Of a DNA stretch of 64,000 bases, positions 23,446-54,763 are shown piece by piece. A model generated the notes under the pieces. That model did not search any database, was not told where the DNA came from, and was given only the letters and a program-made list of their open reading frames with translations. The DNA is taken from positions 11,844,001-11,908,000 of the forward strand of contig CM075992.1 of assembly GCA_038087875.1 (NCBI GenBank), read 5' to 3'. The number at the start of each line of letters is the position of its first letter. Position 1 is the stretch's first letter. A program made the position numbers and the translations under genes. The stretch comes from Malacoraja senta. Lineage: Eukaryota.

Positions 23446-23645
23446 CTGGAGAAACTCAGCGGGTGAGGCAGCATCTATGGATCGAAGGAAATAGGCAATG
23501 TTTCGGCTCGAGACCCTTCTTCAGACTCAGTCTCGACACGAAATGTTGCCTATTTCCATTGCTCCATAAATCCTGCTGCACCCGCTGAGTTTCTCCAGCA
23601 TTTTTGTGTACCTTCGATTTTCCAGCATCTGCAGTTCCTTCTTAA
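23446..23645. mobile_element. Penelope-like terminal-repeat hairpin (short inverted repeat)
   Basis: 23447-23512 is approximately the reverse complement of 23532-23598. Carries CTGAAGA-stem-GAAAC on the minus strand. Family assignment is from recall. Confidence 0.6.
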
Positions 23646-24647: not shown

Positions 24648-24839
24648 TTAAGCGCGATGTTTTAAACGGTGGTTTAAAGCCCTTTAAATGAGTAAACTGC
24701 CTCCAGCTGTGAGCCCTCAGAGATCAGTGAAAAAGCTGCTGAGAGACCAGAAGAAGCCTGAAGCAGGTTACCTCTGAAGACTCTGAAGTCTCTGAAGTGG
24801 CTGCAGAAATGGATACGATCTAAGAAAGAGTTTGATGAC

Positions 24840-25811
24840 TTGAAGAAATCAGTGAAAAATATGAAAGATGAGATTTTGGATGAAAATAAAATTATGATGG
24901 AAAATATGAAGGAAAATATGAAGGAAGATATGAAGGAAAATATGGCAAATATGATGGAAGGAATGGAGAAGATGATGAGGGATTTAAATGCTGATAATCA
25001 GAAGGCTATGGATGCTAGCAATCAGAATATGATTGATTCACTGGACATTATGAATAAACGAATTGATGAGGTGAAAGATGGACTATCAGAGAGAATGGAC
25101 AAGATGGATGAAACTACTACGGACAAGTTCACGGCTGTGCTTGAAACAGTAGCTGCAAGTATGCGCACAATTACGGAATTGGAGAAACACACGGCTCGAG
25201 TGCTTGAAGACATGGCGAAACTGAGGCAAGAACATGAGCAAATGAGGCGAGAAAATGAACAAACTTCACTACAGATGGTGACTCAACTCAGTAAAGTTTC
25301 AGAAAAATGCCTGGACCTGGAAGCTCGCTCTAGACGTCAGAATTTGAGAATTCTTGGAGTCTCAGAGGGAGCCGAGGGGGAGGATGTGCGTGAGTTTGCC
25401 ATGGGCTTGCTTAAACAACTGCTGAATCTTTCCAAAGAACCGAAAATCGAAGTGGCTCATCGTGTCCCAAGATTTAAACAAAGATCTGGTGCGGGAAAAA
25501 CTTATCCACGACATATTATTGTGAAATTTTGGGATATTATAGAACTGGAAGATGTTATGAGCAAAATCAAATACGGTGTGCAACTGCGGCTGGACGATGA
25601 CACTATTAAGATATTCAGGGACTACCCGTATGAAATTGTGCAAAAAAGAAACAAATTCGAGAAGGTTAAGGATCTTTTAAGAGGGAGAGAAGGGATCAGA
25701 TATGGGATTTTTTACCCTGCGAAAATGCGTATTTCCTTTAAGGGTCTTGAAAAGTCATTTGTTAAGCCTGAAGACGCATTTAAATATGCCCAAACTATCG
25801 TTGAAAAATAG
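24840..25811 (+). CDS. L1 ORF1p (coiled coil + RRM/CTD, Transposase_22-like); original start probably ATG 24688, now disrupted
   Basis: DLEARSRRQNLRILGVSEGAEG, IEVAHRV, PRHIIVKF and YPAKMRI motifs. Confidence 0.88.
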   Translation: MKKSVKNMKDEILDENKIMMENMKENMKEDMKENMANMMEGMEKMMRDLNADNQKAMDASNQNMIDSLDIMNKRIDEVKDGLSERMDKMDETTTDKFTAVLETVAASMRTITELEKHTARVLEDMAKLRQEHEQMRRENEQTSLQMVTQLSKVSEKCLDLEARSRRQNLRILGVSEGAEGEDVREFAMGLLKQLLNLSKEPKIEVAHRVPRFKQRSGAGKTYPRHIIVKFWDIIELEDVMSKIKYGVQLRLDDDTIKIFRDYPYEIVQKRNKFEKVKDLLRGREGIRYGIFYPAKMRISFKGLEKSFVKPEDAFKYAQTIVEK

Positions 25812-26644
25812 AAATCAAAGGGGGGTTTGGCAGAGCTGAACCATTCTAAGCAATGCTTTGTCTGGGGATAGTTAGACTGTTATCTTTGGAATGTTGAATC
25901 AAGGACACTTTCTGTTCAAAACGAGTAAACAGCTGAACAGACGGGAATGGTATATACCAGAAGCATTTACTTGCTTATTAGACTATAATATTAAAACCAA
26001 TTGTAAGAACTTATCCTATTAACAACTTAATAAGTTATGCATGTTAGATTAGAATACTAACAAAAACAAAAATAAAAAATAACGAACTAACATACTAATA
26101 TGAATTTTTAATAAATTGAAACCTTATCTATGTGGGAGATGGGGATGAGAAACGAGCACCTGGCTTAGGCCCAGGGGTACGTCTCGTTAACCCCTTCAAC
26201 CAACAATTGATTCTTATTGAAGTCAAAAGTATCGGTTTAATAATTAGTAGTTAAAATTCCAATATATATATATATGTTATAATGAAATATATAGGGTAAA
26301 ATTGTATTATATATCTGAATGTGAGGCCCCGTTTTAATATTTTAATATGTTATGATTAACCAACAGAGCGGAGCTATTTGTGTAACAACGCAATGGAAGT
26401 CAAAACAAGGTTTTTTCCCACCTACAGGTGGGACACTCGCTACAATGACGACTATATCAGACACTGTATTTTCACTTTTTTAGGGTTTTTTTCTCACATA
26501 AAATCACATGTTTGTGTTTTGTGTTTAGTGATAAGCGTAAAATGGACATACCAACAAAACTTAAAAACTCAAAGGTTCCCCCAATACCCAAAGACATGGG
26601 ATATGGATGGTCCACAAGATTTAAAGGTACTATAATTATTCAAA

Positions 26645-29600
26645 ATGCATGACACCAAACAAAAGAACCTAGGAGGAATCTCATTTTGTAGTTGGAATAT
26701 AAGAGGTATTAACGAACCTATTAAAAGGGGTAAGATACTAGCTCAGCTGAAACTGTACAACTCCGACATTACCTTCCTACAAGAAACACACTTAAAATCT
26801 CAGGATCAAGTTAGGTTGAGGGCGAAATGGATAGGTCAAACATACCATTCTTCATTTACTTCAAAATCTAGAGGCACGTCAATCATCATAAGAAAAGGTA
26901 TACCATTTAAAGCAAAGAATATCATAACAGATATAGAAGGGAGATACCTAATAGTTAATGGAGAAATCCATGATACTCCACTTACCTTGGTAAATATATA
27001 TGCCCCTAACTTTGATAACCCCCACTTTTTCAATAAAATTTTCAACATAATTGCAGAGTCTAATTATCAAAATGTTATAATAAGAGGAGACTTTAACTGT
27101 GTTTTAGATCCGTACTTACATAAATCAAGCCAAAAACAGAGAGGGAATATGAAATCGAAAACCGGGGAACTTCTCAATACCTATATAAACAATACTAATA
27201 TAGCAGATGTTTGGAGAATTGTTAATCCAACTGGCAGGGAATACTCGTTTTATTCAATGGTACATAAGACATACTCACGTATAGACTACTTTCTGCTGGA
27301 TACAAAATTAATCCCCTAAACATCTAACCCAATATACCACACAAATTCGATTTCAGACCATTCTCCACTAACTTTCTTTTTAAAACTGGAAGGAATGTTT
27401 AAGAATAAATCGTTTTGGAGATTTAATTCTCAAATTCTAAAAGATCCACAAGCGAGTATATATTTAAAAGAACAAATGGAGGTCTTTTTTCAAATAAATG
27501 ATACTCCAGATGTATCGCCTACTGTATTATGGGAATCTTTTAAAGCATACATTAGGGGTATTATAATTTCATATCAAGCTTTTCAAAATATAAAGAATAA
27601 GAATGAACAAAGACAGTTAGAAGAACTTATTAGACAAATGGGTATAGATAATGCTAAAGATCCATCAATAGATAAACATAATAAAATAATAATTTTGAAA
27701 TTTAAATTAAATAAATTATTATCTGCCAAACTTATAAGACTTTTTCAAATGACAAAACAAGAGCACTTTGAATTTGGGGATAAACCGCATAAACTTTTGG
27801 CTCACCAGCTAAAAAAACGAGAAAAGGAACATACTATACCAAAGATCAAATCAGATAAAGGGGAATTATTAACAACACCGAAGGATATTAATAAAAGATT
27901 TGCGCAATTTTATGAGAATTTGTATACATCTAAAACGACAATTGATTCCAATAATATCACAAAGTTTTTGGATAACTGTAATCTTCCAAAGTTAGAGCTG
28001 AAGGAACAAGAGGAATTGGGTGCACAAATCTCAATTAAGGAATTAGAAGATACAATAATCTCACTAAAGAATGGAAAAACACCAGGCCCTGATGGATTTA
28101 CTAATGAATTTTATAAAAGCTTTTATGATAAAATAATACCAAGATTACAAAAAATGTACCAATATGCTTTAAAAAAACGAATACTACCTGATACATTAGC
28201 GGAATCAACGATTACACTAATACCTAAGAAAAACAAAGATTTAGAAGAACCTGGTTCATATAGAGCTATAGCATTGTTAAACACAGATCAAAAAATATTA
28301 GCGAAAACATTAGCTAGAAGATTAAATAAATACATTAGTAAATTAATAAACCCAGATCAGACGGGTTTAATCCCTAAGAGATTCTCATCTAACAATATGA
28401 GACGTCTACTCAACATAATGCACTCACACAAATCTGAAGATCAAGAATTATCAATTATTTCGCTGGATGCTGAAAAAGCATTTGATCAAGTAGAATGGAA
28501 TTATATGGATAAAGTATTACAAAAATTCCAACTGGGGGAGAATTTTATTCTATGGATCAAGTTACTATATAACAAACCTACAGCTAGAATACTAACTAAT
28601 AACATATTATCCTCGAAATTCCAACTATCAAGGGGAAATAGACAAGGATGCTCATTATCACCACAGCTGTTTGCTCATTATTGAACCGCTAGCAGAAAAA
28701 ATTAGAATACACCCTGATATCCATGGATATAATACTAAAGACTCATATAATAAAATATCTTTATACGCGGATGATATATTACTGTACATTACAAAACCTC
28801 AAATCACTATACCAAATATATTAAATTTAATTGAAGACTTTGGATCTTTTTCTGGATATAGAATAAATTGGAATAAAAGTGAAATTATGTCAATAAAACC
28901 GAAAGATTCAACACATCTTTTAAAATTCCTTTTTAAAATAGCTACAGAAAAATTTAAATACTTGGGAATCGAAATTACCAGAACATATCAAGGTATGTTT
29001 AAGGCAAATTTTGACCCCCTACTTAATAAATTAAACACACTAATTAAATTCTGGAAAACGCTCCCGATGTCTTTAATAGGCCGAATAAATGCAATAAAAA
29101 TTATCTTTCTACCACAAATTTTATACCTATTTCAATCGATTCCTATATACTTACCAAAGAAGTTTTTTAGAAAACTCGACTCAGATATCACTAATTTTAT
29201 ATGGGACTGTAAATCACATAGAATTCAAAAAACTCATCTGAATAAACCTAAAGTATTAGGGGGTTTAGCACTACCTAATTTTATGTATTATTATTGGTCA
29301 GTAAATATTAAAAATATGATTCAACTGATGGATAACTCAGCCCAGCAAGTGGACTGGATTGTAATGGAGAAAGAGGATTGCTCCTCTGGAAACATTGGAG
29401 CGATCCTCCTCTCTCCAATGAAATTGAATAACATAAATTATAATAAGAACCCAATTATTCATAGTACAATCCGAATTTGGAAACAAATAAAACAAAATTT
29501 AAAATTAAGAAATTTATCACTTTTATTACCTATAGTTAATAACCCTTCATTTAATCGCTCTATTATAGATAAAGCTTTTACACATTGCGATAGACTAGGA

Positions 29601-30434
29601 ATTAAAACGCTTGGTGACTTGTATGAAACTGGAAAATTACTTTCATTTCAACAATTACCAATAAAATATAAACTCGGAAATAATCAATATTTTAAATATC
29701 TTCAAATATGCGACTATTTGAAAAAATATACAAAATATCATTATAATAACCCAGTAGATGTATTGGATGAGGCAATGCAGATAAAAGCTGAATCAGCAAA
29801 CTTAATATCATATTTGTATAATATTATCTTAAATGTACAAATACCATCTACGGAGGGTATCAGAAGAGACTGGGAACAAGAGTTAGCTATTAAAATTTCA
29901 AAGGAAAGTTGGAATGAACACTTATTAAACGTGCATAAATGTTCGATTAATGTAAGACACACTTTAATACAATTTAAAATTTTATATAGATTATATTATT
30001 CGAAAACTAAAATTCATAAAATGTTCCCAAATGTATCATCTATTTGTGATAAATGTCAATCCCAAGAAGCTACTATAGCGCACTCATTCGTTTTCTGTAC
30101 AAAAATTCAAAAATTTTGGAATGAAATTTTTGAAATCTTTACAAAGTTATTTAAAATAAGACTGATACCCAAAGCAGAATGGATTATCTTCGGAATAACG
30201 GAAGATGGTCCAGAACTAAATGTGTTTCAAAAGAAACTAATAGACTTTGGGTTAATAACTGGAAAAAAGCTAATTCTAAAATTTTGGAAGAAGGCTCCAA
30301 TACCAACTATAAATTTGTGGATTTCAAATATGTTCGAAACATTACACCTAGAAGAGATAAGACTCCTCCTAGCAGGTAAACCAGATCACTTCCACCTGAC
30401 GTGGTCTGCATTTATAGAATTATTACAAATATAG
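26645..30434 (+). pseudogene. L1 ORF2 (EN-RT-CCHC) with one nonsense codon (27317) and one frameshift (~28672)
   Basis: SWNIRG, FLQETH, GDFN, PGPDG and YADD across ORFs 26645-27319, 27395-28684 and 28671-30434. Confidence 0.92.
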
Positions 30435-44520: not shown

Positions 44521-44706
44521 AGATATTGTGAACTCATCCTTTAAATACAGTGCAAGACTGTTTTACAACACGCAGGATTGTTTAACAGTTTAAACAGTAA
44601 ATACGGAGTTGTGTCGCAGTTGTTTGCGAGCTGGACATGAGAGGCCTGCAGATCCTTCTATGCAGGGGGCTGTAGTTTAAAACAGCAGCTGGATAAATCG
44701 GCAAGT

Positions 44707-47700
44707 TTGTCAGGAGAGATAGTGGCTGAAACAAATAAGGCCGTTTGCGAACACATGAAAGCGATTCTGCTCACGGAGATAGGGCCTGAAGTGTACGGCA
44801 CACTTGTGAATCTCCTTGCACCCTCAAAGGCAAAAGACATGCCTTTCAATGACATTATAAATAAGTTGGAGGAGCACTTCAACCCAAAGCCTCTGGAAAT
44901 TGCAGAAAGCTATAAATTTGGCACTAGAAACCAGAAGCAGAATGAGACAATCAATGAGTACATTGTTGCCTTGAAAAACATAAGTTTACACTATAACTTT
45001 GCAACCTTTCTTGGACGAGCACTACGCGACAGATTTGTTTGTGGTCTGGTGGATGAACAAATTCAGTCCCAACTGATGAACACTCCAGATCTCACATTTG
45101 AGAAAGCATGCAAGATTGCTACCACAATAGAGATGGCATCAAAGAATGCTCGCGAGTTTCGCCCATCACGAACTGCAGTGGCCGTTTACAGTCACAAGGC
45201 AGTGCCTATGGCCAAACCAAGAGGCGCTAAACCAAAACTGAAGTATGGTGGGGAGCCGAGTTCAGCCAGTTGTTATCGTTGCAACGGTAATCACTCATCC
45301 CAATTTTGTCAGTTCAAAATGGCCAAGTGCTATAACTGCCAGAGGAAAGGCCATATCGCCTCAGCATGTTGGGCCAAGCATAAAACAGGAAACCAACAAT
45401 CTGCGGGAATCAAGCAACAACACCGGAGAGGAGTTCACAACTTGGAGGGGAACCCAGATGGAAATGAACTTGGGTTGTACACCATTTATGCAACCAACAT
45501 CGATAAGCCTACAACCAGCCAAGGCAAGGACTTTCAAACTAAACTATTGATTAATGAACAGTTAATCGATACGTGTATTGACACGGCAGCAGATTGTTCG
45601 GTCATGAGCAAAGACCTGTACGAAACAAAGTTCCCACAGATACCATTGTTTGAGAGTAAGGTCAAGCTGAGAACCTACTCGGGCAAAGTTTTGGAGACTT
45701 GTGGACAAATGAACTGTAAAGTTCAGCATAATGGTCAGTCGGTAACACTGCCCATCATAGTAGCCAGCTACAGAAATAAACCAACCCTCCTTGGAAAGGA
45801 TTGGCTGAGTAGAATAGAATTAGACTGGAAGAACATTTTCAGCATCAATTTGTCCAAATCACATCTTGAAAACGTCATAAGCAAACATGCAAATATTGTT
45901 CCTGACAGTGACACGGGATTAGCAGGGTACTCTGCACACATTCAACTTAAGCAAGATGTGAGGCCTGTGTATTGTCGACCAAGACCTGTACCATATGCAC
46001 TAAAGCAACAAGTGGAGGTAGAACTCGACAGATTAGAGCCTAATGGAGTACCTGTGAAGACAGACCAGAGTAAATGGGCAACGCCAATTGTGGCCGTACC
46101 CAAGGCTGATAAAACTGTTCGACTATTTGGTGATTACAAAGTCACAATCAACCAAGCCGTTGATGACGAACAATATCCGTTACCAACCTCGCAAGATCTA
46201 TACGCAGAACTTAGCGGAGCAAGAGTCTTCACTAAACTGGATTTGTCTCACGCTTATGCCCAACTCAATGTCGATAAGGAAAGTCAGCAGTACTTGACTA
46301 TCAACACACATAAGGGCTTGTATTCATATACAAAGCTGCCCTATGGTGTGAAATTCTCCCCGAAAATTTTTCAGTCTGTCATGGACCTAATATTACAAGG
46401 CATTCCGCACTGTGTGTGCAACCAGGATGACCTATTGATATTCACAGAAGGCATGGTAGAACATCTGAAAATCCTCGAGCAAGTTCTCATAAGACTGAAC
46501 TGCCACAATGTCAAACTGCGTCAATGGAAATGTGCATTTGCGCAGTCAGAGGTGGTCTACCTTGGACTGAAAGCAGATGCCAACGGACTTCGCATTGTGA
46601 AAGCGAAAGTTGAAACAATAGTGAATGCTCCAAAACCCAACAATGTGTCAGAGCTACGATCATTCCTTGGGATGGTGCAGTTCTATGCACGATTCCTTCC
46701 AGATTTAGCAACTGTGCTAAAGCCACTTCATCATCTGGTACAAAAATACATGAAATGGACGTGGGGAAAGGAACAGCAACGTGCATTTGACATCTGCAAG
46801 GAGAACTTGATAAGTGACAAACTTCTTGTTATGATACGACACGCGAGATGAAACTTGCTTGTGATGCTTCAAGTTATGGTGTAGGTGCAGTGATCTACCA
46901 TGTAATGAATGACGGACAGGAAAAGCCTATTGCCTTTGCATCCCGCACCCTGTCATCGAGTGAACGCAACTATGCGCAGATAGAAAAGGAAGCACTCAGC
47001 ATCGTGTTCGGAATCAAGAAATTCCATCAGTTTCGTCTCGGCAGACCATTCACCCTAGTGACTGATCACAAGCCACTACTAGTGATACTTGGTCCCAAGT
47101 CAGCTATACCCTCCATGGCGGCATCAAGGATGCAGCGCTGGGCAATTTTGCTGTCCCAGTATGACTACAAGGTTGAGTACAGAAGCTCCAAGTGCAACGC
47201 AGTTGCAGATGTGTTGTCCCGGTTGCCCCATGAGAACTCTGACGTGGGAAGTGAGAACTCAATCTACACAATGCAAGTGGTAGATGAAGACGTTCCAGTG
47301 ACTGCAACAGAAATTGCAGCAGAAACAAAGAAAGACAATGTGCTGAAGTGGGTTTATGAACAGACATTGCATGGTTGGACTGAAATCGATAGTGGATTGA
47401 ACTCAGTTCTGAACTCAGAGCTGAAGCCTTTCCATAATCGACGCCATGAATTATCATGTGAGCAGGGATGTGTTAAGTGGGGTTACAGAGTGGTTGTACC
47501 AGAGTCTTTGAGAAACAAAATTATGAACGAACTTCATGCCAAACATCCTGGCATAGTAAGCGTGGTCAATTGCCAGAAGTTTTGTGTATTGGCCTGGTAT
47601 TGACAGGGACATTGAGTCACTGGTGAGCAAATGTAGCGTCTGCCAAAATTGCCGGAGTAAACCACCAAAAACACCACTGTAACCCTGGTCATGGCCAAGT

Positions 47701-48610
47701 AGACCTTTTCACAGAGTTCATGTACATTTTTGCAAAAAGGGTAATGATCACTTTCTGGTGCTGGTAGATAGTCATTCAAAATGGATTGAGGTTAAACATA
47801 TGGGGTCAAGCACTACTACTGAGCGTACCATAGATGAGTTGAGATCCATTTTTGCATGCCATGGTTTACCGGAAGAACTTGTTTCTGATAACGGGCCTCA
47901 GTTTCGTTCAGAACGGTTCAAAGAGTTCATGCAGCAGAATGGTGTAAAACACACACTTGTTCCCCCATACCATCCAGCCTCTAACGGGGCAGCGGAAAGG
48001 TCTGTTAGAGTTGTCAAAGACGCTCTCAAGAAACAGGTTTTGCAGGGTAGTTCAAAGCTCAGCATGAAACATCGTTTGGCTAGATTCTTGCTGAAGTACA
48101 GAACCACACCACACACAACAACAGGTTACTCACCTGCAGAACTGTTGATGAAGAGAAGGCTAAGAATACACCTAAGTCTAGTTCAACCCAAGTTGACTTT
48201 GAGAGTTGAACAAAAACAATTAAGTCAGAAATGCCATTTTGACTCCCACAAAAAGGGGAGGGACTTGAAGCCAGATGAGCAGGTTCGTGTTCTCAGTCCT
48301 CCCAACAAGTCCAGTCGAGACAAATGGGATGTTGGGAAAATAGTGGAAGTGTGTGGAACAAAAAGATACTTAGTTGAAGTGGGAGATAGGATCAAAAGTG
48401 TTCATGTTGATCAAATGATTCCAGCCAAAGATGAACCAAAAACTGAACATGAAGTCCTAATCCCTGAGTCTTTATCGGAAAGTGAGTTGGAAGAGCCAAC
48501 TGTGATTGAAACACAAAGTTCAGTCAGTACAGACAAAGAAACAGATTCCTCTGATCAAAGTCGGAGAACTAAAACGGAGCCAACAAGCCTACAGTTGAGT
48601 CAACACCTAA
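44707..48610 (+). pseudogene. Gypsy gag-pol polyprotein, frameshifted
   Basis: CYNCQRKGHIASAC, IDTAAD, LDLSHAYAQ, NQDD, ACDASSYG, SDNGPQF and PPYHPASNGAAER. Confidence 0.92.
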
Positions 48611-48867
48611 ACCTGTTTTTTTTTAATTTCAAAATAGACTTTATTCACGTAATAAATATATACAATACGTGACACGTGCGAAAAATGTATCCGACATTTC
48701 CGGAGGCTATACAAATTGTTCAATGCAGTTAATACATTTTTTCAAATTCCACAGATCCGTCCCCCCACCCGTGCCACTCTTGTGGCCCCCTGGCGTGGGA
48801 TACCTTCCCTTATTTTGAGGGGCATTTCCACCATACCGTGCCCCCCATGTCCAGCAGCGGAAGGACC

Positions 48868-51800
48868 CTAGACTGTGGCCCTCCCCCACCGAGCCTTGGC
48901 GTTGGCTGCACCGAGCTTCAGTGCGTCCCTCAGCACGTACTCCTGCAGTCTGCAGCGGGCCAGTCGGCAACATTCCCCGACGGACATCTCGCTCTGCTGG
49001 GTGGTGAACAACGCTCGGGCAGACCAAAGAGCATCTTTCACCGATTTGATGACCCTCCAGCTGCACTCGATGTCAGTCTCTGAATGTGTCCCTGGGAACA
49101 GTCCGTAAATCACAGAGTCCTCTGTGACGGAGCTGTTCGGGATAAAGCGTTCCAGGGACCCTTGCCTACTTCTCCAGACTCTTTTTCCAAATCCACACTC
49201 TGCAAAGAGGTGGGCAACCGTCTCCTCTCCATAGCAGCCGTCCAGAGGGCAGCGTGCGCTGGCAGTGAGATTCTGACGGTGCAGGAAGGATCTGACTGGG
49301 AGGGCTCCCCTCACCACCGGCCAAGCCAGGTCTTGGTGCTTGTTGGTGAGTTCTGGCGATGAGGCATTTTGCCAGACAAGCTGGGCAGTCTGCTCTGGGA
49401 ACCACGCCACCGGATCCATCGAGTCCTTTCCCTGCAGTGCCTGCAGGACATTCCGTGCTGACCACTGCCCAATGGACATGTGGTCAAAAGTGTTGGTCCG
49501 GAAGAACCTTTCCACGGACGACAGATGGGGCGGCAATGTCCAGCTGACTGACACATTGCGTGGCATCTGCGCCAGGCCCATCCTTCGCAACACTGGGGAC
49601 AGGTAGAACCTCAGCAGGTAGTGACAGTTGGTGCCCACGTGCCTTGTTTCTACACACCGCCTGATGCAGCCACACACAAAGGTGGCCATCAGGGTGAGGG
49701 CGACGTTGGACACGCTTTTACCCGCGTTGTCTGCTGACTTGTACATTGTGGCCCATCGCACCCGGTCTATCCTCGACCCCCAGATGAACTGGAAGACGGC
49801 CCGGGTGATCCCTGTGGCATAGGAGGGAGGGACAGGCCACACTTGTGCCAAGTACAGCAGCCCCAAGAGCACCTCACACCCGATGACCAAATCTTTTCCG
49901 GTTATGGAGAGGGAGCGTTGCCTCCACAGCTCCAGCTGCTTCCCCACCTTGACTATCCGCTCCAGCCAATTCTTGTTACACGCCTCAGCCCCCCCCGAAC
50001 CAGATCCCCAGCACCTTCAAGAAGTCAGGCTTGATGGTGAAGGGGACAGAAATTCGGTCGGGCCAGCTGCCAAAGAGCATGGCCTCGCTCTTCCTGCGGT
50101 TCACCCTGGCTCCCGTGGCCGACTCAAACTGGTCGCAGATACTAATCAGTCTGCGGACCGACCTTGGATCCGAGCAGATGACAGCGACATCGTCCATGTA
50201 CAGGGAGGTTTTGATTTGAATGCCCCCCACTGCCTGGCAATGTCTCTCCTCTTATGCTCGAATCCTTCCTGATGGACTCGGCAAAAGGTTCAATACAGCA
50301 GACAAAGAAGACAGGAGAGAGAGGGCACCCCTGCCTGACTCCAGACCTTACAGGGAAACTGTCTGATTCCCACCCATTGATTTGGACTGCTCTACGGATA
50401 TTGGTGTAGAGCAGTTTGATCCAATTTCGGATTCCCTCCCCAAAACCCATTTTGGAGAGCACGTCCCTCATGTACGTGTGCGATATCCTGTCGAAAGCCT
50501 TCTCCTGGTCCAAGCTGACTAGGCAGGCATCCACCCTTCTATCCTGCACGTAGGCGATGGTGTCTCTCAGCAGCGCTAGGCTGTCTGAGATTTTCCTGCC
50601 AGGCACAGCACAGGTTTGGTCCGGGTGGATCACCTGTCCCAGAGCAGACTTGACCCGGTTGCCGATGGCCTTAGACAGGATCTTATAATCTACATTCAAC
50701 GGTGTTATGGGTCTCCAATTCTTTATGTCCTTCATCTCCCCCTTCTGCTTGTAGATTAGGGTGATGCTGCCCTTCCTCATCGAGTCTGACATGCTGCCGG
50801 CTAGAAGCATGTCGTTGTACACTTCCAGCAGGTCCGGGCCCACCCAGTCCCACAGAGCCGAATACAACTCGGCCGGTAAGCCATCGTTTCCGGGAGTTTT
50901 ACTCGTGTCAAAGGAACGGATGGAGCCAGTCAGCTCCTCCAGGGTCAGTGGTTGGTCCAGACTCTCCCGCTTGCTGTCCTCCAAGACCTCCGTGATAGAG
51001 GACAGGAAGTTCTGGGAGGCGGTGCTGTCTGTGGCCTTTTTGTCATACAAATCCATGTAAAAGGATTTGCAGATCCTCAGTATATCCATCTGCAAGGATG
51101 TTACCGAGCCGTCCTCCTCCCTAAGGCTGTTCATCACAGAGCTCCCCCTGTGAACCTTATGGAAGAAGAAACGTGAGCACGTCTCATCCTGCTCCACATG
51201 GCGGACCCTGGATGGGAAGATGATCTTGGAGGATTCAGACGTAAAGAGCCGAGCTTGCCGGTCCTTCACCTCTCTAAGTTCCTCCCTCACATCCACCCCT
51301 CTCGACTGCAGAAGGAGCAGTTGTTGCAAATCTGTCTAGAGTTGGCACAATTCCCTCTGACTCTGTCTTGCTCTCTGAACCCCTTTAACTATGAAGAACC
51401 TCTTAATGTTCTCCTTGGTTGCTTCTCACCAGAGTGTTGGGGAGTCAAAGAGGGGCCTCACCGTTCTCCAACATGCGTAGTCCCTCTTTAGCTCCTCAAC
51501 GTTCTCTGGGGTCAACAGCTTCATATTTAACTTCCACGTCCCCCTGCCTGCCTTCTGGTCCTCCTGTAGGTGACAGGAAGCCTGAAGGAGGCAGTGGTCA
51601 GAGATGAACACCGGCGTGAGGTCGGTGTGTCTCACCGTGACGGCCTTCGTCATGAAGACAAAGTCTATCCGGGATCGGGCTAAACCGTCCGATCTCGACC
51701 AGGTGAACTGCGGCTGGGACCCGCCTGCAGGGTTGCTGAAGGCGTCGTGCAGCTTTGCATCTTTTACCGTCTCCATCAGGAACTTGGACATGCTGTCCAG

Positions 51801-52291
51801 TCTGTTGTCGACACTGCCGGATCGTCCAGCCGCATCAATGATGCAGTTGAAGTCACCGGCCAGAACGAGCTGCTGGGACGTGGCCAGCAGCGATGGGAGC
51901 TGCTGGAGAACGGCCAGCCGCTCGCTCTGCACGGGTGAGGCATACACATTAATCAGCTGGAGCGTAGAACCATGGTATATAACATCCACCACGAGGAGAC
52001 GCCCCCCAACCACCTCCCTGACCTCAGTGATGGCGAAGTTCCCTCCCCGCAGCAAGATCCCCAGGCCGGAAGGGCGACAGTCATTGCCCCCCGACCACAC
52101 CGACAGTCCGTGGGGCCACCATCGCGACCACCTCCGATAGCAGCAGAGGTGTGGCAGCCCACACTCCTGGAGAAAAGTCACATCAGCCTTGACCTTGGCC
52201 AAGTACTGCAAGGTATTAACACAGTGCTCTTTATACTATTAACAGTGCTCTTTATACTGCACACGTTTAAAGATGCCAGTTTTAGCTCCAT
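48868..52291 (-). pseudogene. Tx1 ORF2 (APE EN, RT, CCHC), several frameshifts
   Basis: MELKLASLNV, FLQE, AGDFN, SRID, SDH, DQEKAFD, RQGCPLSP, YMDD and CPLDGCYGEETVAHLFAEC. Confidence 0.92.
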
Positions 52292-52367: not shown

Positions 52368-53984
52368 TCAGGAACCCGGTGCCGGCATCCTCGATGAGGT
52401 GGGTTTCCTGTGGCGTAACCCAAGGTGTCGTTGGGGGGGCCTACTTGTTCCACCCCCTTCTGGGCTAGCTGCTTCCTCCATCTCCTGTAGCTGGGGTACG
52501 GTGGCTGGTTCCCTGCTCCCAGTTGCCCGGAGCTGTGGCCCATTGGCCTCTGCGCTGCTCCCGGTCGCCCGGAGCTGTGGCCCATTGGCCTCTGCAATGC
52601 TCCCTGTATCCCAGAGCTGGGGCCCATTGGCCACTGCAATGCTCCCAGTCGCCCGGAGCTGGGGCCCATCGGCCTCTGCACTGCTCCCTGTATCCCGGAG
52701 CTGGGGCCCATCGGCCACTGCAATGCTCCCTGTATCCCGGAGCTGGGCCCCATCGGCCGCTGCGATGATCCCGGTCTCCAGGGGCTGAAGCCCCTCGGCC
52801 GCTGCTCTGCTCTCGGTCTCCTGGGGCTGGGGGATGATCGGCGTGGCCTTTCTCTTTTCCCTCCCCTGTTTTCTTCCTCTGCCTCCATCGTTGGGACTTC
52901 CCGGTCGCCTCATCCTCCGACGAGGAGAGGTTGCTGCCTTCTGTCAGGGAGAGAGATCTTTTTTGTGATTTATTTTTGGACTTACCAGCCCTTTCCGACC
53001 TCGGCTCCTTCGGCTGAACCCTCTGGTGCTTCTTGTACGTCACTGTCGTCCATTTCTCCTGCTGTTCCCCCCCCTCCATCGACTCTCCCTCCTGGGCAGG
53101 GTGCTGGGGGTCTCCTTCAGGCACTTGGTGGCTCGAGGTGGTCGGGCTGTCCTCGTCCTTGTTCCCCCTTTCTGCTGCAGTCTTGGCAGTGGTGAGGGGT
53201 GTCTCACCCACCCTGGGGGTGCTGGCAGCAGCCCTCTTGTCACCTGTGCATAGGTGCAGGCTCTTTTAGGGCAAGCCCTGTAAAGGTGGCCTGCCTCCCC
53301 GCACAGGTTGCAGTTCTAGCTGGCCTGACAGTCCTTTGTCTCATGGCCCTCCGTCTTGGCAGTTCTTGCAGACAACTGCAGTGCATTGGACCATCACATG
53401 CCCAGGCTTGTTGCATTTCCTGCACAGCCTGGGCTGCCCCACGTAGCTCATGTATCCTCGGTTTCCTCCAATTGCGAAAACCGAGGGAGGGTGGAGGAAT
53501 GCTCCGTCCTTGTCCACCCTCAGCTTTATCTTGACTTGCCGCTTGCTCGTCCAGATCCCATGCAGGTCCTTCACGTCCACGCAGCTCCCTGTTCCCTCAA
53601 CATAAGAGGCAAGGAAGCTAAGGACATCCACTACGGGCACCTGTGGGTTAAACATATGCACCGTGATCATCCTTTCCTTCTGGGTGGGGAGAGTGAAGAG
53701 CGGCTGCACTTTCAGCAGCAACAGCGGAGCTTCATTCCCCTTCTCCCGGATGTCATCCATCAACTTTTGCCATCCCGTCGGATACTTGAAGGTAACGTCA
53801 AAGTATCCGTTACCCGGGAAGTCCTGGAGGCAGCAGATGTCCTTGGCCTCAAATTTGCAGGCCCCCAGCAAGATCTTCTTCACGAACAGGTCCCGTGAGA
53901 AGGGAACCCCTTGCTGAGGTCCTTAACGCTGATTCTCAGGGTATTGCAGATACCCTGTACTCCCGCTCCAGTTGCTGCTGCCAT
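52368..53984 (-). pseudogene. Tx1 ORF1 (ZCCHC3-like nucleic-acid-binding region + zinc knuckles + low-complexity tail), frameshifted
   Basis: ATG at 53984 (MAAATGAG). Motifs FDVTF, DLHGIWT and GNRGYMSYVGQPRLCRKCNKPGHVMVQC. Confidence 0.82.
52513..52766 (-). repeat. 42-bp coding tandem repeat (6 x 14 aa) in Tx1 ORF1 tail
   Basis: (I/S)A(A/V/E)A(D/N)G(P/A)QL(R/W)(D/A)TGS repeated six times. Confidence 0.9.
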
Positions 53985-54156
53985 TGTGGCTCAACGAGGT
54001 GTTAGGTTGCTTGCCCAAACCGGCATAGATCCACCTCTAAGCCCGCAGCCGACCGATTCCTCATCACCAATTTCGCTCCGCGATCCACGGCCCTTGTCCC
54101 CAAGGGACCGCCAGAACTGTTCTAATTAAGAACAGATAGTCTCTTTTACTCAAATA

Positions 54157-54212
54157 CTCATCCTGGGAGAACCTCCTTGGTGATCAAGGTCTCTCCCCTG
54201 CCAGGTAAGAAT
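54157..54212 (-). ncRNA. U1 snRNA-derived fragment (nt ~1-56, incl. stem-loop I), inner head of Tx1
   Basis: ATTCTTACCTGGCAGGGGAGAGACCTTGATCACCAAGGAGGTTCTCCCAGG matches the human U1 5' end (as recalled) at 45/51. It is a fragment, not a gene. Confidence 0.9.
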
Positions 54213-54239
54213 CAGGTAGGTTACGACGGAATGAGCGGA

Positions 54240-54264
54240 GGTGTCTCCCCTGCCAGGTAAGTAT
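54240..54264 (-). ncRNA. U1 snRNA-derived fragment (nt 1-25), outer head of Tx1
   Basis: ATACTTACCTGGCAGGGGAGACACC begins exactly at U1 +1 and matches human U1 (as recalled) at 24/25. Confidence 0.92.
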
Positions 54265-54763
54265 CTGAACGTTGCCTATTTCCTTTGCTCCATAGATACA
54301 CCTGTTACTGTTAGACGATCAGGCAGGATCCATAAACCAGTAGTCAGATTAGGTTTTTAAGTTAAGTAACTCACTGTCTAGGTAGAATGAAAATGTGTAA
54401 ATATGTAAAATAAATATATTGTGTTATCATTTAAAATCTGACCCACTGACAACTCTCCTTTTTTGTGCCAGATTCCAAATCTGTCCTATCCATGTACAGT
54501 ATCTAACAACATCCAATTCGCCAGCTCACCTTGGATTCCTGACTAGTCTACCATGTGGGACCTTGTCAAAGACCTTCCAAAGTCCATATAGACAACATTG
54601 CCCAACCCCCATCAATCCTCTTGGTGACTTGATGAAAATCTCAGATTCATTTCCCCAATAAAAAGCCATGCTGGCTATAGAACATGGAATTTTGGAACAA
54701 ACTTGCCATAATGTCCTGTCTGACTGGTTTGTTTGATGCAACTGATGCCAATCACAAGTCATG

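Follow-up and report, generated by a model that had tools for sequence, protein, structure and literature searches.

The locus examined here raises the question of why the leader of a retrotransposon should carry the 5' end of U1 snRNA, and whether the stem-loop I contained in it has been kept by selection to recruit U1-70K. On the minus strand of the window (the whole 64,000-nucleotide stretch of Malacoraja senta DNA that was analysed), positions 54212-54162 align clearly with U1 nt 1-51, nt n lying at 54213-n, and the region to which the preliminary description of this DNA drew attention, 54162-54197, corresponds to U1 nt 16-51. The rest of U1 is missing from the segment, including the loop of stem-loop II and the Sm site, and its match to the Rfam U1 model (E=6.7e-7, 33.9 bits) falls below the gathering score of 69.5. 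The 64-kb window held no U1 match at the Rfam gathering level, no U1 gene as defined by a 164-nt RNA with an Sm site, and no U2 gene. Apart from a second, outer head in the same leader, no other copy of the U1 head was found in the window; a head-specific pattern gave no match in metagenome contigs, broader patterns gave none in viral contigs, and no locus related to ORF1 was found in viral contigs.

The host element and its insertion site

That the U1-derived stretch lies inside retrotransposon RNA, as first described, is borne out by the alignment and by the surrounding LINE, which is full length, dead (its frames are broken) and runs on the minus strand from about 54296 to its poly(A) tail. 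The body of the element and its target comprise the following features.

53341 to 53984, minus strand: start of ORF1 (ATG at 53984-53982; frame broken near 53905)
48868 to 52235, minus strand: ORF2 in three pieces, with Exo_endo_phos, RVT_1 and zf-RVT in order
51426 to 52235, minus strand: ORF2 piece, APE endonuclease
50142 to 51335, minus strand: ORF2 piece, reverse transcriptase (RT)
48868 to 50016, minus strand: ORF2 piece, zf-RVT
48616 to 48624, minus strand: poly(A) tail, the 3' end of the LINE, with 0-1 base shared with the target
44641 to 48615, plus strand: Gypsy-like LTR retrotransposon (protease, RT, RNase H, integrase) interrupted by the LINE and resuming at 54297

ORF1 encodes two ZCCHC3-type RNA-binding domains and a CCHC knuckle, and five of its seven homologues name an organism, in every case a cartilaginous fish (Heterodontus, Mobula, Heptranchias). 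Among 120 RT homologues listed, one is named transposon TX1 149 kDa protein (P0108, 41%), most of the other names being uninformative. Judged by its domains and by the names of its homologues, the element is most likely a Tx1-like LINE of a cartilaginous fish. A tandem repeat of about 42 bases (52513-52832) separates its ORF1 and ORF2 domains. The window also holds a second, L1-like LINE on the plus strand (24762-30434, with RT and zf-RVT), at whose 5' end no U1 match was found.

Relatives of the element were sought in contigs of four runs (X1, X3, X4 and X5, from four organisms, among 24 runs listed), aligned to 53800-54350 at 80% likeness, a threshold at which other U1-like repeats may have been included. 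The resulting variants are unphased, 40 of 81 rows are listed, and depth is not a measure of copy number. The inner head is covered in all four runs, and six of the listed pieces (14, 28, 29, 30, 31 and 32) extend from it into the UTR of the LINE; it is thus a fixed part of the family.

Insertion of the element into a U1 gene was ruled out, the 3' flank being the Gypsy-like element. No real target-site duplication was found at the ends of the LINE, where only 0-1 base is shared with the target; a candidate duplication of 7 bp was rejected because loose ends of empty sites, seen at 54297 in X3, X4 and X5, show the motif already present twice. In X4, one contig (54207/54297) has an inner-type head, truncated at U1 nt 6, attached to the same Gypsy-like element 13 bases from the present insertion site. 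This single contig hints at a possible independent insertion and at target preference.

Assembly of the leader

Read 5' to 3', the leader consists of a piece of a high-copy repeat, U1 nt 1-25, a leader segment, U1 nt 1-56, a U2 piece and two hairpins.

54265 to 54296, minus strand: high-copy repeat piece at the extreme 5' end of the insertion, 90% alike over 30 nt to 23473-23502 and 23542-23571
54240 to 54264, minus strand: outer U1 head, nt 1-25, identical at 25/25 positions to the U1 locus L015
54213 to 54244, minus strand: leader segment upstream of the inner head, with a best U1/U2 match of 9 nt only
54157 to 54212, minus strand: inner U1-derived segment, U1 nt 1-56, of which nt 1-51 align clearly, internal and fixed in the 5' UTR of the family
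54127 to 54138, minus strand: U2 snRNA-derived piece, U2 nt 37-48, a 12-nt exact match (7/3000 shuffles)
54117 to 54135, minus strand: hairpin 2, 7 bp, with a common one-base deletion in its loop
54087 to 54111, minus strand: hairpin 3, 10 bp, its upper stem having the stem letters of the shifted U1 helix described below

The outer head is a later addition. It joins the native UTR across a 5-nt microhomology (54240-54244, the letters of U1 nt 21-25), and beyond 54244 the leader continues with non-U1 letters in 17 contigs of X1 and 12 of X4. A junction of five shared letters is what a template switch would be expected to leave. In one X1 contig both heads and the repeat piece are identical throughout (54181-54296) at a depth of 116.7, most other listed X1 pieces standing at about 40-66; both heads may thus have been propagated together in one piece. 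Eight X1 contigs carry the leader segment 54213-54244 and then no U1 (54211), and represent either a sister family or another repeat. In one contig of X5 (54161-54206) the sequence returns to a point 46 bases earlier, so that the U1 head is duplicated in tandem. The repeat piece at the extreme 5' end reaches a summed depth of up to 1.8 million in X1; its counterpart at 23450-23600 consists of two inverted copies arranged head to head.

Downstream of the inner head, a form one base shorter, common in all four runs, extends the U2 match to nt 52 (15/16 positions, 3/2000 shuffles). Hairpins 2 and 3 together stand out against shuffled sequences (z=-3.99, 0/200 shuffles). The stretches 54087-54111 and 54175-54189 share five stem letters per arm, and cross-pairing between them is possible.

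Departures from U1, competing folds and variation within the family

For comparison, 16 U1 loci were fetched from public contigs and reduced to 14 distinct ones (L001 and L007 overlap L002 and L008 and were dropped); they are taken to be fish host DNA, and 13 score above the Rfam gathering cut-off, L010 being cut short. The search pattern fixed nt 5-21, 23-25 and 27-32, and those columns are therefore uninformative. In the remaining ones, A26 is present in 14/14 loci and nt 39 is T in 13 and C in one; U26 and A39, each found in 0/14, are thus new in the element, and the reported exchange of one stem pair (A26>T with T39>A) stands. The same is true of G22: the loci are evenly split at this position between C (7) and T (7). 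The supposed conversion of a wobble into a G-C pair by T44>C, on the other hand, is no change of the element, since all 14 loci have C44; pair 20-44 never varies among them and the element. In non-mammalian U1, C44 may occur together with U45. Position 45 is T in the element and A in 14/14 loci. C34 is indeed present in the loop and differs from the human one, and it also occurs in one of the 14 loci (L008). Three further differences (A3>T, A52 and T53) had gone unlisted. The loci themselves vary at nt 22, 33, 34 and 39, and L006, an apparently intact U1 locus, also carries a 26-39 mismatch. A search of the literature, in listings, found no U1 sequence from a cartilaginous fish.

Among these loci, U1 adjoins U2 in L008, L002, L006, L015 and L016, and in L008 genes for U1, U2, U5 and U6 and a tRNA lie within 2.4 kb. 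In L010 (9-55) the U1 copy ends at about nt 47 and is followed by unrelated sequence, possibly an insertion in a U1 gene; an element named as U1-targeting, Dada-U1, appears in the excerpted text of PMC4640811.

Two features of the inner segment bear on its fold.

54165 to 54197, minus strand: stem-loop I region, nt 16-48, with a lower stem common to both folds
54172 to 54174, minus strand: nt 39-41, paired in the canonical fold and bulged in the shifted fold

All 10 pairs of the canonical stem can form in this copy. A two-sided change, however, affects only one of the ten (26-39, from A-U to U-A), and eight never vary; the plural "compensatory changes" of the preliminary description reduces to this pair. 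A count of one in ten is matched by 53/500 shuffles, while three to five random changes would leave an intact stem bearing a two-sided change with a chance of 0.011-0.014. The 26-39 swap is thus real and modestly above chance, yet it is a single pair. An in-place inversion of the loop was ruled out as its origin, the loop letters not being inverted.

The lower stem (16-22/42-48) is shared by two registers. Above it, two alternatives compete, the canonical upper stem (23-27/38-42) and a shifted helix of 5 bp. The latter, which ViennaRNA prefers, pairs nt 24-28 with 34-38, closes a 5-nt loop and leaves nt 39-41 bulged. For this copy the predicted energies are -15.5 (canonical) and -16.7 kcal/mol (shifted), a gap of 1.2, and the predicted share of the shifted helix is 0.57-0.89 in five contexts. 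G22, U26 and C34 each contribute one pair to the shifted fold, 12/12 of whose pairs can form here, compared with 8 or 9 for the five U1 loci included in this count. Over the same short span, the predicted share of structures with loop 28-36 open is 0.24 here, against 0.54-0.86 in 14/14 U1 loci; the corresponding predictions are 0.09-0.24 for this copy and 0.00 for the variants, in a comparison whose controls fail at full length. ViennaRNA opens the loop of real, full-length U1 in proportions of 0.00-0.72 in 12 loci, a misprediction, and because of this misfolding fold prediction taken alone is a weak guide.

Binding of U1-70K to stem-loop I, as seen in the crystal structure of Kondo 2015 (PMC4383343), requires G28 to be flipped out and A29 to pair with A36, while stacking and phosphate contacts fix loop nt 33-34; binding is weaker when G28 is lost (PMC8457000). 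Compared with that complex, the element keeps the lower stem and loop nt 28-33 and 35-37, so that the GATCAC and AAG of the loop are preserved as first noted, and it differs from the human loop (28-37) at nt 34 only. Its preferred predicted fold, however, pairs G28 with C34 and U26 with A36 and also engages A35, and a helix in which G28 and A36 are paired would block the form that U1-70K binds.

Variation within the family bears directly on these alternatives. Among the 40 of 81 rows listed, nt 39 and 40 are the sole variable sites of the stem-loop. A39 occurs in all four organisms and dominates in X1 (82% of depth), whereas C39 accounts for 18% of depth in X1, 39% in X3, 79% in X4 and 51% in X5 (10, 11, 8 and 13 contigs, respectively); ordinary U39 stays below 5% in each of the four runs. 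Nt 40 is U in 50% of the X4 depth and A in 56% of the X5 depth. Changes outside the listed rows were deduced by subtracting these from each run's tally of change types. No A>C remains in X3 or X4, which excludes a G26 partner at a level of at least 5%, and in X4 no change remains at any U of the RNA, so that U26 stands opposite C39; X1 and X5 each have one unlisted A>C, and G26 is possible there. Matching partners for the nt-40 variants may lie among the unlisted rows of X4 and X5, and these variants are therefore not counted as breakage of the stem. The swapped pair is accordingly disrupted at 39% of depth in X3 and 79% in X4, and in these two organisms, where C39 occurs without G26, the upper stem is not maintained across copies. 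The earlier statement that the stem is unbroken by any change is true of this copy but fails across the family.

Forms with C39, U40 or A40 are predicted to favour the shifted fold by 4.7-8.7 kcal/mol, with a shifted-helix share of at least 0.98. Both variable sites are unpaired in that fold, but at P=0.077 only. One might object that the C39, U40 and A40 contigs stem from unrelated U1 pseudogenes or non-autonomous repeats, in which case nothing would be known of constraint in the LINE itself. The contigs are short, were aligned at 80% likeness and yield depths rather than copy numbers, and the eight X1 contigs that share the upstream leader and then lack U1 illustrate the danger. Against such a mapping artefact, the scarcity of U39 in every run and the absence of A26 from X4 argue that the aligned contigs carry the diagnostic U26, and pieces 14 and 28-32 run from the head into the UTR of the LINE; we regard it as highly unlikely.

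Continuing selection on canonical stem-loop I, which would recruit U1-70K to stabilise the RNA, export it or mask its splice sites, can draw on the 10/10 pairs formed in this copy, on loop nt 28-33 and 35-37, identical to human U1 (PMC4383343, as excerpted) and invariant among the 40 listed rows, and on A39, which restores the canonical register and dominates X1; a tightly binding protein could, moreover, pay the 1.2 kcal/mol. Yet the swapped pair is widely broken in X3 and X4, C39 reduces the predicted open loop to 0.00, and the head is no less variable than the rest of the aligned stretch (3/56 against 34/357 sites, P=0.45). Selection of this kind is unlikely on the present evidence, and the case for it is not supported, given C39 at 18-79% of depth and the exclusion of G26 in two organisms.

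A related proposal treats the A39/G40 form as a two-state switch, shifted without protein and canonical with U1-70K, which would couple the element to the state of splicing and which other subfamilies would have lost. Both registers are fully paired and close in predicted energy, and A39 is found in all four organisms; but after the loss of U39, two of the three bases pair with U26, which makes the coincidence cheap, and a rival shifted register is present in real U1 loci as well. We consider such a switch extremely unlikely. A broader version, which strikes us as very unlikely, would make the leader a selected U1-U2 chimeric RNA module whose A39/G40 hairpin is flipped between two states by U1-70K. 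In the block 54091-54212, 3 of 122 nt are variable, compared with 34 of 291 (P=0.002, with a boundary set post hoc and for listed rows only), and its changes fall in bulges, loops or wobble pairs. If true, the RNA of the element would mimic part of an snRNP and control its own stability, export or splicing. A conserved pairing of nt 4-12 with 47-56 was ruled out: nt 53 is C, as in U1, in 98, 48, 76 and 96% of depth in the four runs, and the C53 of most copies breaks one pair.

Origin of the fragment and comparison with known systems

The explanation that we favour, with somewhat better than even confidence, is that a captured U1 fragment became fixed in the leader and has since moved away from the U1 register. 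The reverse transcriptase of the LINE would have switched template onto U1 RNA in the course of an ancestral retrotransposition, placing U1 nt 1-56 before an older U2 fragment. Later 5' additions would then have buried the piece in the 5' UTR, where it is fixed and internal in four organisms and would have been inherited with the family. U26 and C34 are predicted to favour the shifted 5-bp helix, in which the U1-70K loop is closed and nt 39-41 stay unpaired. Contig tallies in two organisms show that subfamilies lacking an intact 26-39 pair multiplied nevertheless. Since related copies often break the swapped pair, the hairpin is probably not kept for docking of a splicing protein. If the U1 piece acts at all, it most likely does so together with the two other small hairpins, the three forming a structured leader, and probably not as a docking site for U1-70K. 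Serial 5' additions with microhomology agree with the account of Kojima 2015 (PMC4494074, in the parts available), and lend support to capture followed by a shift of register.

The absence of U39, together with the gain of canonical fold by A39, counts against it. With U39 the shifted fold would be even more stable than it is with A39, at a predicted -18.1 kcal/mol, whereas A39 raises the predicted canonical share from 0.00 to 0.28. A39 may thus be a true compensation, one that may have arisen in the donor U1 gene or early in the element. The former possibility, that U26-A39 arose and came under selection in a variant U1 gene carried by some ancestral host, was captured ready-made and has drifted since, would account for a two-sided change of about 1% chance and for the lack of U39. 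It accords with the variation of U1 loci at nt 22, 33, 34 and 39, with the recombination with other U1 sequences invoked by Kojima 2015 (PMC4494074, in excerpt) and with the older SINEU-2 head printed there, which by eye has G26-C39, G21-C43 and A20-U44, but altered loop nt 30 and 35. Its difficulties are that U26 occurs in 0/14 U1 loci, though none of these is known to come from a cartilaginous fish, and that the outer head, a newer sample of host U1, is ordinary throughout nt 1-25, although it ends before nt 26. We hold a ready-made donor to be doubtful, though a serious candidate; as it concerns origin, it can be combined with the capture and shift of register that we favour.

As evidence of selection for recruitment of U1-70K, the locus is weak, resting as it does on one pair that the family as a whole does not preserve. 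The SINEU-2 head printed in PMC4494074 offers a precedent for compensated U1 stems in heads of this kind, which that paper does not discuss. U1 heads are described there for the crocodilian Tx1-Mar elements Tx1-2_Crp, Tx1-2B_Crp and Tx1-4_AMi, the last of which prefers LTR retrotransposons as targets (PMC4494074, in part). The present element resembles these in being a Tx1-like LINE with a U1-derived 5' region, in this copy inserted into an LTR-type element; it differs in its cartilaginous-fish host, in the internal position of its U1 piece and in the second head upstream. SINEU-2 combines a 5' U1 with a 3' U2 and shows recurrent U1 5' extensions (PMC4494074, as excerpted). The element shares with it the order of U1 then U2, repeated U1 additions, short homology at junctions, the near or complete lack of a target-site duplication and, as read by eye, a pair 26-39 altered on both sides; unlike SINEU-2, it is a coding LINE, its U2 piece measures 12-16 nt only and different letters are changed. 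Keno and Utopia, which target U2 genes, offer a further parallel (PMC4640811, in part): the U2 nt 37-48 of the element span their shared site, beyond which downstream U2 begins at nt 39. In contrast to them, this copy does not sit in a U2 or U1 gene, its flanks being the Gypsy-like element, and the snRNA pieces travel inside the element itself. A search of the literature, mostly in listings, found no report of U1-headed Tx1 LINEs in cartilaginous fishes. The locus widens the range of these LINEs, and of the U1-then-U2 arrangement known from SINEU-2, beyond crocodilians to include cartilaginous fishes. The role of snRNA heads was left open by Kojima 2015 (PMC4494074); since some natural subfamilies of this LINE retain the U1 stem and others break it, that role becomes testable.
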